Positions 11,374-14,839 of a DNA stretch of 64,000 nt are shown here, one piece after another (position 1 is the first letter of the stretch; each line of letters begins with the position of its first letter). A program made the translations under genes and the position numbers. Below the pieces are notes generated by a model that saw only the letters and a program-made list of their open reading frames with translations, was not told the origin of the DNA and ran no database searches. Source of the DNA: an uncultured delta proteobacterium (GTDB lineage: Bacteria; Desulfobacterota; Binatia; UBA9968); NCBI GenBank assembly GCA_963760795.1, contig CAVXEP010000019.1, forward strand, positions 64,001 to 128,000, read 5' to 3'.

Positions 11374-12420
11374 TTATTTGCGGAGAAATTCGCTTTCGAG
11401 TTTTCTAAAAAAACCTTCGCGGTCGAGCTCGTCCAGAATGGTCTCGTCGACGAAACGGTTTAAGTCCGTATCGATCTTAGCCCGCCCGGGTTCACGCTGG
11501 ATGATTTCAATCACATCCTGAACGCCGCGCCGGCCTATTCGCGGGGGAAACGAAAAGACGTTGTAATAGCCGTCGTAGGCGTCTTCGGCGAGTTTGCTGT
11601 TGATGCGCAAGCGTTTGGCCGTGAGGGCGACGATTTTGTCTTTCAACTGGGGTTGGTAACGCAAGCGATAGAGCGCTTCACTGATGCCTTGGAAAAACCG
11701 CTTGGCGTTGTCGCGCTTTCTTTCCAAGAAAGTACGCTCGGTGATAAACGCGCGATCTGGGAATTCCTTCACGATCTCGCCGAGATCGGCGAGGATGTTG
11801 TGCCCCCGTTGCAGTGCGATCGCGGCATTGCTGTAGGGAACCACGGTGCCATCGATGCCGCCAGCGATCTCCAGCGCGGTGAGCCGCGTCATGCTGTCGC
11901 CGGCCGGGACTATCTTGACCGACTCGGGCGGCAGCCCCCAGGATTTGAGCGCCATCAGGATGCTGAACTCGTTGGCGCCGCCGAAATTGACCACGCCGAG
12001 CTTCTTGCCCCGCAGGTCGGCAGGTTTTTGGATTTCCTTGCGCGTGACGAATTTATAGAGGTTGCGATTGAGGAAAGCGCCGGTAACGACCACGTTGGCA
12101 CCGGCCAGATTGGCGCGGATCGGAGCCATCGCGGCTACATTGGCCGAGTCGAGGCTGCGGCCGACTAGCGCTTGCATCAAGCGCGAACCGCCGCTGATCA
12201 CGACGAGATCGACATCAAGGCCATATTTTTCGAAGATACCAAGATCCTTGGCGACAAACAGCGGCAGTTCCTGTGGGCTGGTGCCACCTGCGCCGGCATG
12301 GATGTGGCGTTCGAGGGCTGCAACATCGGCGGTGCTAGCGGCGATGAAAAGCAAAAACGCGAGCACGACAGTGGGCGGAAACATAGACGCGTTTATAGTC
12401 TGGGGTTTAGGGAGATGCAA
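11374..12420 (-). CDS. ABC substrate-binding protein (NMT1/SsuA-like)
   Basis: LPLFVAKDLGIFEKYGLDV and DLRGKKLGV motifs; signal peptide. Confidence 0.9.
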   Translation of the reverse strand: MHLPKPQTINASMFPPTVVLAFLLFIAASTADVAALERHIHAGAGGTSPQELPLFVAKDLGIFEKYGLDVDLVVISGGSRLMQALVGRSLDSANVAAMAPIRANLAGANVVVTGAFLNRNLYKFVTRKEIQKPADLRGKKLGVVNFGGANEFSILMALKSWGLPPESVKIVPAGDSMTRLTALEIAGGIDGTVVPYSNAAIALQRGHNILADLGEIVKEFPDRAFITERTFLERKRDNAKRFFQGISEALYRLRYQPQLKDKIVALTAKRLRINSKLAEDAYDGYYNVFSFPPRIGRRGVQDVIEIIQREPGRAKIDTDLNRFVDETILDELDREGFFRKLESEFLRK

Positions 12421-12469
12421 TCAGCCACCCGAAGTTGACCGATGGATTCTTGTTCACCACGAAGTGCAC

Positions 12470-13967
12470 AGCGCGGCTACGCCGCAACCAAAGTGACAGA
12501 ATAGTGTCTATCATGTAAATGGGAGTGATGGCTAAGACTCTCGACGGTTCGAGGAACGAAGGTGCGCAACGTTTCGTACAACGCCATCACGCCGATGTCA
12601 TCGGGGTTTTGGAAGGCTGGGATCGGCTGCGGCTGCAAGGGACGCTGCGCAGTCTCTATCATCCCTCGGTGATGGATTATTATCTGAAGCAATGTGGTGT
12701 TTTGTGGAAGGACTTTAAGACCTTTGTGACGGGCCTGACCGATCGGGTGAAGCAGTCTGCTGCGGCGTTGGCCATCGAGCATCGCCGTCCGATGATTTAT
12801 TTGCCATCGAGCCGCACTAGCAAGGAGGACACTGCCCGCCAGATTCAAGAGCGGGACAAGGTAGAGAGCGGGCTGATCGCGGTGTTCAGTTGCGTGGAGC
12901 CGTGCCGTCGATGGATAGCGCGAGGCAACCGGGCCACCCAGAAGTTGGAGCTGCGCTTGGAGTGGGGTAAATGCACACACCTTTACTTTTACTGGCTCCA
13001 TGAACAGCTGGGTTTTCTGCATTTTCGGCTTCAGACATGGTTCCCGTTTCTGATTCAGGTCTGTCTCAACGGACGGGAGTGGCTGGGGCGTCAGATGGAC
13101 GCTGCCGGGATTGCGTATCGGCGTGAGGACAACTGTTTCCCATGGATTGACGATATCGCTGGCGCCCAAGCGTTGATGGCCGAGCAGCTGCGCACGCGCT
13201 GGTCGAGCGTGCTCGACCCGCTGGTGCAAACAATGCCATCCGCTTAGCGCCGAGATCACCCGGCCCATCGAGCGCGACTACTACTGGACGGCTGCCGAGA
13301 GCGAATACGCCACCGACGTAATGTTTGGCGAGCGTGGAGCGCTGGAGCGGATTTATCCATCGTTGGTGCATCATGCGGTGATGAGCTTTGGCAGCGAACA
13401 GGTGCTGCGCTTTTTGGGGCATTCGGGCCGGTCTCCGGTTCAGGGCGAAGTTAAAACTGATCGGCGACGGCGTGTCGAGGGCGTGAGGATTAAGCACTGG
13501 GTCAATCAGAACTCGGTGAAGTGCTACGACAAGGGCAGCATTTTGCGTGTAGAGGCGACGATCAACCAACCCAAAGAGTTCCGAGTCTGGCGCGGGCCGG
13601 AGAATAAGCCTGAGGGTAAGAAGCAATGGCGCCCGCTGCGGCGTAGCGTGGCTGATCTGCATCGGCGTGCGCAGGTCAGCCGGGGTACCACCGACCGCTA
13701 TCTCACCGCGCTGGCCGCGGTGCATGTCCGTACTGCGCTGGCACAACAAGCGGCGACCGTATGCCGGCCTGTTGTGCGGCGTGATCGACGGCGCTACCGT
13801 GCGCTCAATCCGCTGGGGGACGCCGACGCTCAACTCTTGGCCATCGTCAACCGGGGCGAGTTTGCGCTCAACGGGTTTCGCAATCGCGATCTGCGTGCTC
13901 GTCTCTACGACGCCACCGAGGACCGAGAACAACAACGCCGGCAGATGACCGCGGTGGGACGGCGGCT
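12470..13967 (+). mobile_element. Putative transposable element of unnamed family, 3'-truncated, inserted in a palindromic repeat
   Basis: Flanked by CAC at 12467-12469 and 13968-13970; starts with hairpin AGC-GCGGC-TAC-GCCGC-AACCAAA; removing it restores the palindrome TTCACCACGAAGTGCACGAAG...CTTCGTGCTTTCGCGGTAAA. Confidence 0.7.
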
Positions 13968-13970
13968 CAC
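12519..13970 (+). pseudogene. Putative transposase/Rep_trans-like nuclease (~480 aa); frameshift near 13230; C-terminal winged helix cut off
   Basis: ORF 12519-13247 joins the frame of ORF 13321 (HP...YYWTAAESEYATDVMF...NSVKCYDKGSILRVEATIN...GFRNRDLR); after AVGRRL the reading frame runs into repeat DNA. Confidence 0.7.
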
Positions 13971-14042
13971 GAAGGTTTCAGATAATTATTATTCCGACCC
14001 TCGTGCTCTTCGTGCTTTCGCGGTAAATACCGACCGGCGATT

Positions 14043-14615
14043 TTACGTCGCTGCTTTGGCGGTCTTGGCAATGAACTTCAGGGCCACGCCGTTGTTGCAC
14101 CAGCGTTGGCCGGTCGGCTTGGGGCCGTCGTCGAAGATGTGGCCGTGATGGCCGCCGCAGCGTATACAGTGGTATTCGGTGCGCGGCAGGATCAGCTTAT
14201 AGTCGGTGGTCTTGCCGAAGGCGCCGGGGATGGTGGTGAAAAAGCTTGGCCAGCCGGTGCCGCTTTCGTATTTCATCTCCGAGCTGAACAGCGGCAAGTT
14301 GCAGCCGGCGCAGGCGAAGATGCCGGGCCGTTTTTCGCCGTTGAGCGGGCTCGAGCCAGGGGGCTCCGTGCCTTCTTCGCGCAGAATGTTAAACTGCTCG
14401 GCGGTCAAGCGCTTGCGCCACTCTTCTTTTGAAAGTTTTAACGGCTCGGTGGGCAGCGGCACTTTAACGCCGTCGGCGAGCAGCGTCTGCCAATTTTTTT
14501 GCAGCGCGTCAACGCTTTTTATCGGCGCAGCTGTCGCGGCGGTGGCAGCGCGGCTTTGCCAAATTGTCGAGAATCCAGCGGCCAGCATCCCTAAGCATAG
14601 CTTACGTCGCGTCAT
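14043..14615 (-). CDS. msrB: Peptide-methionine (R)-S-oxide reductase with twin-arginine-like signal
   Basis: EQFNILREEGTE, CxxC, SGTGWPSF, RTEYHCIRCGGHHGHIFDDGP and RWCNNG motifs; GGAG RBS before MTRRKL. Confidence 0.95.
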   Translation of the reverse strand: MTRRKLCLGMLAAGFSTIWQSRAATAATAAPIKSVDALQKNWQTLLADGVKVPLPTEPLKLSKEEWRKRLTAEQFNILREEGTEPPGSSPLNGEKRPGIFACAGCNLPLFSSEMKYESGTGWPSFFTTIPGAFGKTTDYKLILPRTEYHCIRCGGHHGHIFDDGPKPTGQRWCNNGVALKFIAKTAKAAT

Positions 14616-14839
14616 AGTTAATCTCCTCCATCGGCTAGCGCGATAACGCCGTTCGGCGGCGAATAGTTCCCAAGGTGGCACCCATTTGGCACCGAGTCGG
14701 CTTGTATTAAAACAGTAGGATCTCAATGACAAGGGCACATCGACTCGGATGGCGCCGCTCAGCGGGTCAACGCAGGCGGGCGGTAAACGGGGCATGTAAG
14801 CAGCGAATACAAGCGTCGATCAAAGCTTATGTCAAATGG

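Follow-up and report, generated by a model that had tools for sequence, protein, structure and literature searches.

The 64,000-nt window analyzed here (the whole stretch of DNA, to which all coordinates refer) belongs to G000, a metagenome-assembled draft genome of 35 contigs and 6.58 Mb (89% complete, 6% contamination). At 12468 to 13969 it carries what is very probably a decayed copy of a mobile element that targets repetitive extragenic palindrome (REP)-like repeats and belongs to an unannotated family. The flanking genes, both on the minus strand and outside the element, are SBP1 on the left, encoding an NMT1/THI5-like substrate-binding protein (11374 to 12420; Pfam NMT1, E = 3e-22), and msrB on the right (14043 to 14795; SelR domain, Pfam E = 3e-41), which has matches in 25 of 31 genomes of the genus, G000 counted.

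From left to right on the plus strand, the segment between these genes opens with the remnant of a host palindrome (REP1; 12453 to 12467, TTCACCACGAAGTGC), made up of the first heptamer and a spacer whose last base is C and matching the left end of the G000 REP family. Homology to the relative G013 extends to 12463, and the register, a heptamer followed by nnC, is that of the left flanks of other copies. The element left end (12468 to 12492) comprises a variable dinucleotide (AC, 12468 to 12469), AGC (12470 to 12472), the hairpin GCGGC-TAC-GCCGC (12473 to 12485), and AACCAAA (12486 to 12492), a layout that recurs in a second G000 copy on contig C15, in three copies in the relative G018, and in 58 of 80 metagenome copies. 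An open reading frame (ORF) follows in two frames, the first running from 12519/12528 to 13247 and the second open from 13177. Its part 1 (12528 to 13231) encodes residues 1 to ~236 of ~526, the first half of a predicted TATA-binding protein (TBP)-like saddle, with 86% identity to residues 1 to 236 of the homologue P0001; part 2 (13232 to 13969) encodes residues ~237 to 479 at 82% identity to P0001 and is cut ahead of the winged-helix recognition part. At the truncation junction (13968 to 13969), CA is common to the element interior and a REP heptamer. The remainder of a palindrome (REP2; 13968 to 14030; ~40 matches in G000) then supplies its last left-arm heptamer, its loop, and a three-heptamer right arm.

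A first-pass annotation of this stretch had described both junctions much as we find them. On the left, TTCACCACGAAGTGCAC is followed by AGCGCGGCTACGCCGCAACCAAA, with AGC, the hairpin at 12473 to 12485, and AACCAAA all present; on the right, coding sequence ending in GGCGGCT meets CACGAAGG at 13967/13968, and the palindrome remainder ends near 14030. Both boundaries nevertheless move slightly: the start, placed at 12470, lies most likely two bases leftward at 12468 when compared with 80 other copies, and identity to intact copies on the right reaches 13969, giving a 2-nt (CA) overlap at the junction. The ORF had also been described as cut off at the right junction, and it does stop 47 codons short of the end of 526-aa homologues. 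The full-length homologues run on past the cut as RLLRAHGLIAKV..., and the window copy lacks ~175 to 180 nt: the last 47 codons with their stop, followed by the right end. To this is added a +1 frameshift at 13226 to 13231, where the frame changes through one surplus base relative to intact copies; in contigs of three runs the stretch is shorter by one base, at 13226 or 13231, and reads CAAAAATGCC.

Near-identical elements were found on contigs from four studies. One of these, the 1859-nt contig X9, spans 12466 to 13969 with 34 differences and one gap and then continues past 13969 into the missing C-terminus. Another, an X1 contig, shares CACCACGAAGTGCAC (the 12455 to 12469 region) and the left end with the window and differs in its upstream flank; it may represent a second insertion in a REP with the same spacer, or part of the REP may travel with the element.

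Intact copies were recovered from G018, a genome of the same genus. Its three copies have a 528-aa open frame, are identical across a shared ~1.67 kb, and occupy different REP copies, with different flanking sequence both inside the REP spacers and past ACGAAG. Leftward, the spacers differ immediately ahead of ...GAC/AGC, which is followed by CC-AGC-hairpin; rightward, the sequences diverge after ...CATAGTAGT-ACGAAG. Because identical copies diverge at both flanks, the ends of the element are fixed. Joining the two flanks restores ...CACGAAG-GA-C^ACGAAGG..., so insertion in G018 left no target duplication. As first proposed, there are also no terminal inverted repeats: in the 1674-bp G018 copy, the best match between the left end and the reverse complement of the right end scored 7, a value equalled in 228 of 500 shuffles. 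The second G000 copy, on C15, is itself decayed (69% nucleotide identity) and has the same starting hairpin and a complete C-terminus.

A wider sample of ends came from metagenome contigs, on which 588 of 599 pattern matches were confirmed; 80 of these loci (L077 to L156) were kept for end and flank analysis. In 58 of the 80, the ORF is preceded by a perfect 5-bp hairpin and then AACY; elsewhere in the same loci such matches number 6 in 345 kb, which agrees with the earlier assignment of the hairpin to the element. When sites were picked by an anchor that did not require pairing, all five pairs formed at 53 of 63 sites and four of five at a further 3, against 0 of 429 controls with five pairs. 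Compensatory arm changes occur as CCGGC/GCCGG in nine loci and GCGGG/CCCGC in one. AGC stands directly before the hairpin in 41 of 57 loci, and the dinucleotide before that triplet varies (AC in 19, CC in 16, CT in 12, and others in 10). The family left end therefore reads NN-AGC, a 5-bp hairpin GCGGC-n3-5-GCCGC, and AACCAAA. The right end lies ~35 to 45 nt past the stop codon and consists of a hairpin of variable sequence (at least 6 bp in 34 of 68 right-end tails) followed by (A/G)TAGTAGT or a variant. A far end that varies as a property of the family, as the first-pass annotation had supposed, is contradicted by this conserved right end in intact copies.

In the same 80 loci, the right junction, ~31 to 37 nt past the stop codon, is often straddled by a 7-nt palindrome (GTAnTAC or GCAnTGC), the final two bases of which belong to the flank; its inner bases covary with the opening of the host heptamer, CAC or CGC. 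A role as a guide-like hairpin was considered unlikely, given its 1-nt loop. At L129 (2370 to 2410), a right end ...TAGTAGT runs straight into another left end (AC-AGC-hairpin-AACCAAAC), past which the sequence is unrelated. A circle junction was rejected there since the DNA after the second left end is not that of the element; adjacent insertions, or an insertion beside a miniature unit, are the readings that we adopt.

The host repeat unit is an imperfect palindrome of ~105 nt with up to three CACGAAG heptamers per arm. BLAST of 13968 to 14030 against G000 returned 150 matches of at least 35 nt, and the genome holds 136 clusters of at least three exact heptamers, or 0.13% of its length, so the repeat suggested by the window alone is real. 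Short imperfect palindromes in many intergenic copies are what characterizes REP and bacterial interspersed mosaic element repeats, and the CACGAAG repeat has both features. A second G000 repeat family of 137 copies is built on CGCAAAG heptamers. Two further repeats were observed. One, a different short element starting ...CCTTCGAAAATAC(A/C)...GATGAT(A/C)TGCACAA(C/T)GA(A/T)GA..., disrupts the right arm of numerous REPs, both in G000 and in its relatives, and also occurs at the flanks of L040, L041, and L076; the other (...GTAGGGGCGTATGGCATACGCCC...) recurs in G000 intergenic regions.

Element copies sit between two tandem heptamers of such repeats, in a single orientation and at the register ...CACGAAG-nnC^ACGAAG.... 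Left flanks carry a host heptamer plus 2 to 4 bases ending in C (CACGAAGgaC, CACGGATGgaC, CACAGAGgC, CGCAAAGgC), and right flanks open with that heptamer lacking its initial C; in other hosts the target heptamers are CACGGATG, CACAGAG, and CGCAAAG. The same host 6-mer was present on both sides of 23 of 44 loci with two flanks, compared with 83 of 940 control windows. REPs house the window copy and its C15 counterpart, as well as all three copies of G018 and the majority of the left-end hairpins of G000. The original proposal of a repeat-targeted element with a left hairpin and no inverted repeats is borne out. Entry at CAC as a general rule is not: the register is a heptamer plus nnC, then a variable dinucleotide, then AGC.

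That every copy is bracketed by REP-like heptamers might instead mean that the REP arms are part of the element, as in a domesticated gene of the REP-associated tyrosine transposase (RAYT) kind, or that the locus is an assembly chimera at repeats; the draft status of the genome and the lack of reads over the flanks would suit the latter. Both are very improbable. Identical G018 copies differ in their REP spacers and right flanks, and L099 and L100 are one element with different right flanks, which makes the heptamers target rather than cargo. Relatives have orthologous REPs free of the element. As for a chimera, the 13967/13968 joint shares only 2 nt and offers no repeat at which an assembler could switch.

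Shorter units share these ends. Among 31 left-end-like hairpin matches listed in G000, some of them chance-like, many lie in REPs at the same register. Two have a right end ~145 nt downstream of the left hairpin (C15:136857 and C25:94819), forming miniature units of ~160 to 190 bp inside REPs (C15:136830-137060 and C25:94790-95040) with right ends ...ATAGTCAT or ...CTAAT before ACGAAG. These miniature units are probably nonautonomous derivatives. Several further left-end hairpins in G000 REPs have no recognized right end.

The history of the window locus is more involved than the first-pass annotation had it. In G013 the order is SBP1 (88% nucleotide identity), REP1, SBP2 (a second binding-protein gene, on the opposite strand), REP2, and msrB, and the G008 orthologue of SBP1 is likewise followed by REP1 and then SBP2. 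SBP2, at 90 to 100% amino acid identity to the G013 query, adjoins REP2-msrB in six of nine relatives' loci checked (L043 being G013 itself). The orthologous REP adjoins msrB in G019, G022, G003, G013, and G021, and in G003 it is uninterrupted. No SBP2 orthologue was found by tblastn in G000, which is 89% complete, the best match having 38.8% amino acid identity. Since relatives keep SBP2 between REP1 and REP2, which are there ~1.5 kb apart, the REP halves in the window come from two separate REPs, with loss of SBP2; a single REP split by a single insertion, as originally described, is contradicted. NMT1/THI5-like substrate-binding genes are hugely expanded in G000, with well over 100 tblastn matches to one query. 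In G008, the REP1 beside SBP1 (L067, G008:C324, 240 to 470) bears a left-end miniature at the register of the window element, and thus either the site was hit independently or the insertion is old.

The first-pass annotation had suggested looking for an empty allele between the binding-protein gene and msrB. In one X3 contig, 12466 and 13968 are directly connected, the arrangement expected of such an allele, at a depth of 2.2 and with 38 letters on its shorter side; it may represent an empty allele or simply a further copy of the REP. Truncated ends at the exact target register do recur, which may favor the one-ended behavior first attributed to the element: the right end of the window copy is one case, and both ends of a fragment in G003 (L024, G003:C10, 1500 to 2540) are others. 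The G003 fragment is internal, covers residues 139 to 484 without either end of the element, and sits precisely in one unit of the 137-copy repeat family, at GCCGCAAAGAAC^GCAAAGG, with its 3′ break ~10 nt from that of the window copy.

The simplest account of the window truncation would be an ordinary deletion, in which a full element stood in REP1 and one event at CA microhomology removed ~180 nt of it together with the rest of REP1, SBP2, and the left arm of REP2. The gene order in G013, the left half of that order in G008, and the SBP2-REP2-msrB arrangement in six of nine relatives' loci are what such a deletion predicts, as are the missing SBP2 orthologue and the 2-nt overlap, and a single event covers both losses. 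We consider it rather unlikely all the same. The three G018 insertions use the C^ACGAAGG register, and the right endpoint coincides with it exactly; there are few such positions in ~1.5 kb, and a rough estimate puts the chance of this well under 1 in 100. The G003 fragment, lacking both ends within one repeat unit, is unobtainable by flanking deletions, and its break lies ~10 nt from that of the window copy; the X3 contig also suggests an allele without SBP2 and the element. Because the joint lies at the C^ACGAAGG register, and in view of the G003 fragment and, to a small degree, the X3 contig, we lean slightly toward a truncation made by the element through its own cleavage-joining activity. 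By this route, SBP2 would have disappeared beforehand, and the element would then have been cut short at its own right junction.

Recurrent truncation could also point to a one-ended, IS91-like rolling-circle element with the hairpin as its fixed origin and a naturally variable far end. Such an element would lack inverted repeats and target duplications, would conserve the left hairpin, and would leave truncated ends at the target register as in the window and G003, and the predicted protein fold does resemble rolling-circle initiators. This explanation is nonetheless improbable: the right end is fixed ~35 to 45 nt past the stop codon in all three G018 copies and most of the 68 tails, the G003 fragment lacks the hairpin end as well, there is no HUH/Y2 domain, and the flanks are not GTTC/CTTG.

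The encoded protein has little recognizable sequence similarity to described families. Pfam (E ≤ 10) gave no match for the window ORF parts, P0001, or P0092 and only winged-helix matches among 50 members; NCBIfam and PHROG gave no fitting family for the ORF parts or full-length homologues, weak C-terminal winged-helix matches aside. Only unnamed clusters of "hypothetical protein" were returned from the ESM Atlas, and a sequence-profile search of the PDB found only MarR-type chains (E = 0.2 to 0.4). An alignment of 50 full-length members has invariant D32, R33, K99, Y153, Y155, E259, D263, K331, Y333, R340, E342, and H485 (P0001 numbering), with Y333 in a K-x-Y-D-K motif.

Structure prediction was more informative. 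The full-length AlphaFold model has a mean pLDDT of 90.9, and its residues 400 to 526 form a MarR-like winged helix (Z of about 9); the N-terminal 402 residues modeled alone reached a pLDDT of 93.7 and a pTM of 0.90. This N-terminal domain matches TBPs with Z of 7.0 to 8.3 (1mp9_B, Z = 8.3 over 179 aligned residues at a root mean square deviation [rmsd] of 4.1; 7o4i_O, Z = 8.0) and Rep_trans enzymes with slightly lower scores (4cwc_A, Z = 7.0, 179 residues, rmsd 5.1; 4cij_A, Z = 6.7, 188 residues). Among the 50 matches listed, TBPs or TBP-containing chains and the two Rep_trans chains align 170 to 188 residues over both halves; most of the others cover the second half only, or 80 to 125 residues, and an unrelated chain, 7n7s_A, aligns 205 residues at an rmsd of 8.0. 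Foldseek placed 4cij weakly (E = 3e-3 to 9e-3) in the PDB and, in BFVD, found a viral TBP (E = 3.7e-4) and inovirus proteins, among them A0A345MNV4 (E = 3.9e-3). Rep_trans enzymes are described as having the TBP fold, and A0A345MNV4 is cited as a Rep_trans initiator (PMC13107129). In the models, then, the first ~400 residues are a TBP-like double saddle and the C-terminus is a MarR-like winged helix. Whether the protein is a Rep_trans-like tyrosine nickase is, on the predicted fold, an evenly balanced question; if it is, Y333 or Y153/Y155 would be our guess, from conservation in the alignment, for the catalytic tyrosine.

The ORF might instead encode a passenger DNA-binding protein, the unit being moved in trans by, for example, a Y1/RAYT-type transposase. 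Distant plasmid homologues are annotated as ArsR family regulators or hypothetical proteins, only the winged helix gives a family signal, G000 has three Y1_Tnp matches, and short left-end units without the ORF exist. Yet the ORF is the sole gene in the 1.67-kb unit and is conserved together with the ends down to 47% identity, its 400-residue domain outside the helix-turn-helix contains invariant Tyr, Asp, Glu, Lys, and Arg, and the G000 Y1 genes have no CACGAAG repeats in loci of ~3.2 to 3.3 kb (~1.5 kb on each side). A passenger role is therefore quite improbable.

The family is large. A word-based search with the second half of the ORF returned 3637 proteins, nearly all of 525 to 528 aa, and phmmer with the first half returned 3542 representatives of 50% clusters (E ≤ 1e-3). 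Homologues sit on contigs of ~1.7 to 2.2 kb and, where named, are called "hypothetical protein." Presence is patchy: of 201 genomes drawn from the phylum, 10 are positive, as are 8 of 41 relatives, with G000 counted both times. Nothing claimed here depends on G004, a genome that is unpublished. A contig scan with a single protein query found one locus only; an alignment query would reach further. No description of such an element was found in the papers searched on Rep_trans or TBP-fold transposases, rolling-circle transposons, or REP-targeting insertion sequences (ISs), with ISfinder lying outside this comparison.

Taken as a whole, we read 12468 to 13969 as the dead remnant of an autonomous IS of ~1.67 kb that encodes a Rep_trans-like nickase and truncated itself, with a probability of roughly 0.7 for the complete statement. 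In the proposed mechanism, the winged helix and saddle would bind the end hairpins, and an invariant Tyr (Y333, or Y153/Y155) with the acidic residues D32, E259, D263, and E342 would nick one strand per boundary. A single-strand or rolling-circle copy of the element might then enter REP DNA that is exposed in hairpin form. The window copy, on this reading, entered the REP beside the binding-protein gene, gained its +1 frameshift, and lost its last ~175 to 180 nt; the break is joined exactly at the C^ACGAAGG register of the msrB-side REP, perhaps by way of a cryptic internal site. Anatomy, targeting, decay, the missing SBP2, and the want of a family assignment are observations, whereas catalysis, strandedness, and the origin of the truncation are inferences.

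Several observations weigh against this reading or parts of it. With both models, Foldseek found nothing in the PDB at E ≤ 1e-3; the fold matches are moderate (Z of 7 to 8.3), and such values can come from a common arrangement. None of the 50 members matched PF02486 (Rep_trans) or DUF7845 (PF25227) at E ≤ 10, and K-x-Y-D-K is not the YxxK of Rep_trans enzymes. We saw neither a circle junction nor a covalent intermediate, and no strand bias. The CA overlap at the right junction is what an ordinary microhomology deletion would give, and the absence of SBP2 fits a single plain deletion from the element interior into REP2. The copy's own flank at 12300 to 12427 was covered by none of four runs, and the joints of the locus are those of the assembly. 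The family may also already carry an ISfinder name that is not reflected in NCBI, Pfam, or the papers searched.

If this reading is correct, a very abundant IS of soil bacteria has escaped annotation, and thousands of protein clusters labeled "hypothetical protein" or "ArsR regulator" belong to it. A transposase type on the TBP/Rep_trans fold would mean that transposition by a tyrosine nickase arose a second time, independently of the HUH enzymes, and would link chromosomal ISs to the initiators of pT181-type plasmids and inoviruses and to archaeal Rep-Arvir. It would also provide a testable case of REP-like palindromes as safe landing sites, the target being a short, recognizable motif junction. 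Defined ends and a protein profile would let annotators mask these elements and their miniatures in metagenome-assembled genomes, whose assemblies they break, and the elements would be linked to local gene loss, as at the window locus. More tentatively, and with slightly more doubt than confidence, we propose a new transposon class: a TBP-fold, Rep_trans-like tyrosine nickase with a winged helix, unrelated to DDE, DEDD, HUH, serine, and tyrosine-recombinase enzymes, that would carry hairpin-ended DNA, in single-strand form or by rolling circle, into the heptamer junctions of REPs, and in which the same machinery yields truncated copies, miniatures are nonautonomous, and the heptamer palindromes of many soil phyla may be coevolving landing pads.

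Comparison with known systems places the element beside several groups. IS91 targets the tetranucleotides GTTC/CTTG. Like IS91/ISCR elements, the element described here lacks inverted repeats and duplications, has two distinct ends ("origin" and "terminus"), and occurs in truncated or aberrant copies whose limits fall at sequence resembling the target; it differs in lacking HUH/Y2, in having both intact ends fixed, and in its target, the flanks being REP heptamers (...nnC^ACGAAG). Membership was rejected on the absence of an HUH/Y2 domain in Pfam and NCBIfam, and the analogy to IS91 drawn in the first-pass annotation does not extend to kinship; no other transposase family of those databases was found either.

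With IS200/IS605 and RAYT/REP systems the element shares subterminal hairpins at both ends, insertion in one orientation beside a short specific sequence, association with REPs, and miniatures. Its subterminal hairpins and lack of inverted repeats and duplication are IS200/IS605-type traits and show similar working only. In contrast to these systems, it has a ~526-aa protein of saddle plus winged helix and targets a heptamer junction instead of a tetranucleotide, and it is multicopy and patchy, whereas RAYTs are single copy. Membership in IS200/IS605 was rejected because Y1_Tnp (PF01797) is absent from the ORF and all 50 members, the three PF01797 matches of G000 lying elsewhere, and the absence of CACGAAG repeats within ~1.5 kb on each side of those three matches also led us to reject a RAYT link. 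Members of IS110/IS1111, with a DEDD transposase and a bridge or seeker RNA, are the classical REP-targeting ISs (PMC1525189 and PMC11208160); they likewise insert into REPs with high specificity, lack classical inverted repeats, and have a sizeable noncoding left region. The element was excluded from this group for want of DEDD_Tnp_IS110 (PF01548) and Transposase_20 (PF02371) domains, and there is no guide RNA evidence for it.

Parallels in predicted architecture are seen with Rep_trans initiators (pT181-type RepD/RepDE and RepSTK1; 4cwc and 4cij), which combine a TBP-like double saddle with a hairpin recognition element, a conserved Tyr, and acidic residues. The element differs in giving no sequence match and Z of only 6.7 to 7.0 to these enzymes, in a domain ~100 residues larger, in its K-x-Y-D-K motif as opposed to YxxK or KHYYM, and in being a chromosomal IS and not a plasmid or virus replicon. 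Archaeal Rep-Arvir (PMC13107129) has essential Tyr and Glu residues and shares with the predicted protein the same order of domains: a MarR-like winged helix-turn-helix comes after a TBP-like domain, which in Rep-Arvir is catalytic.

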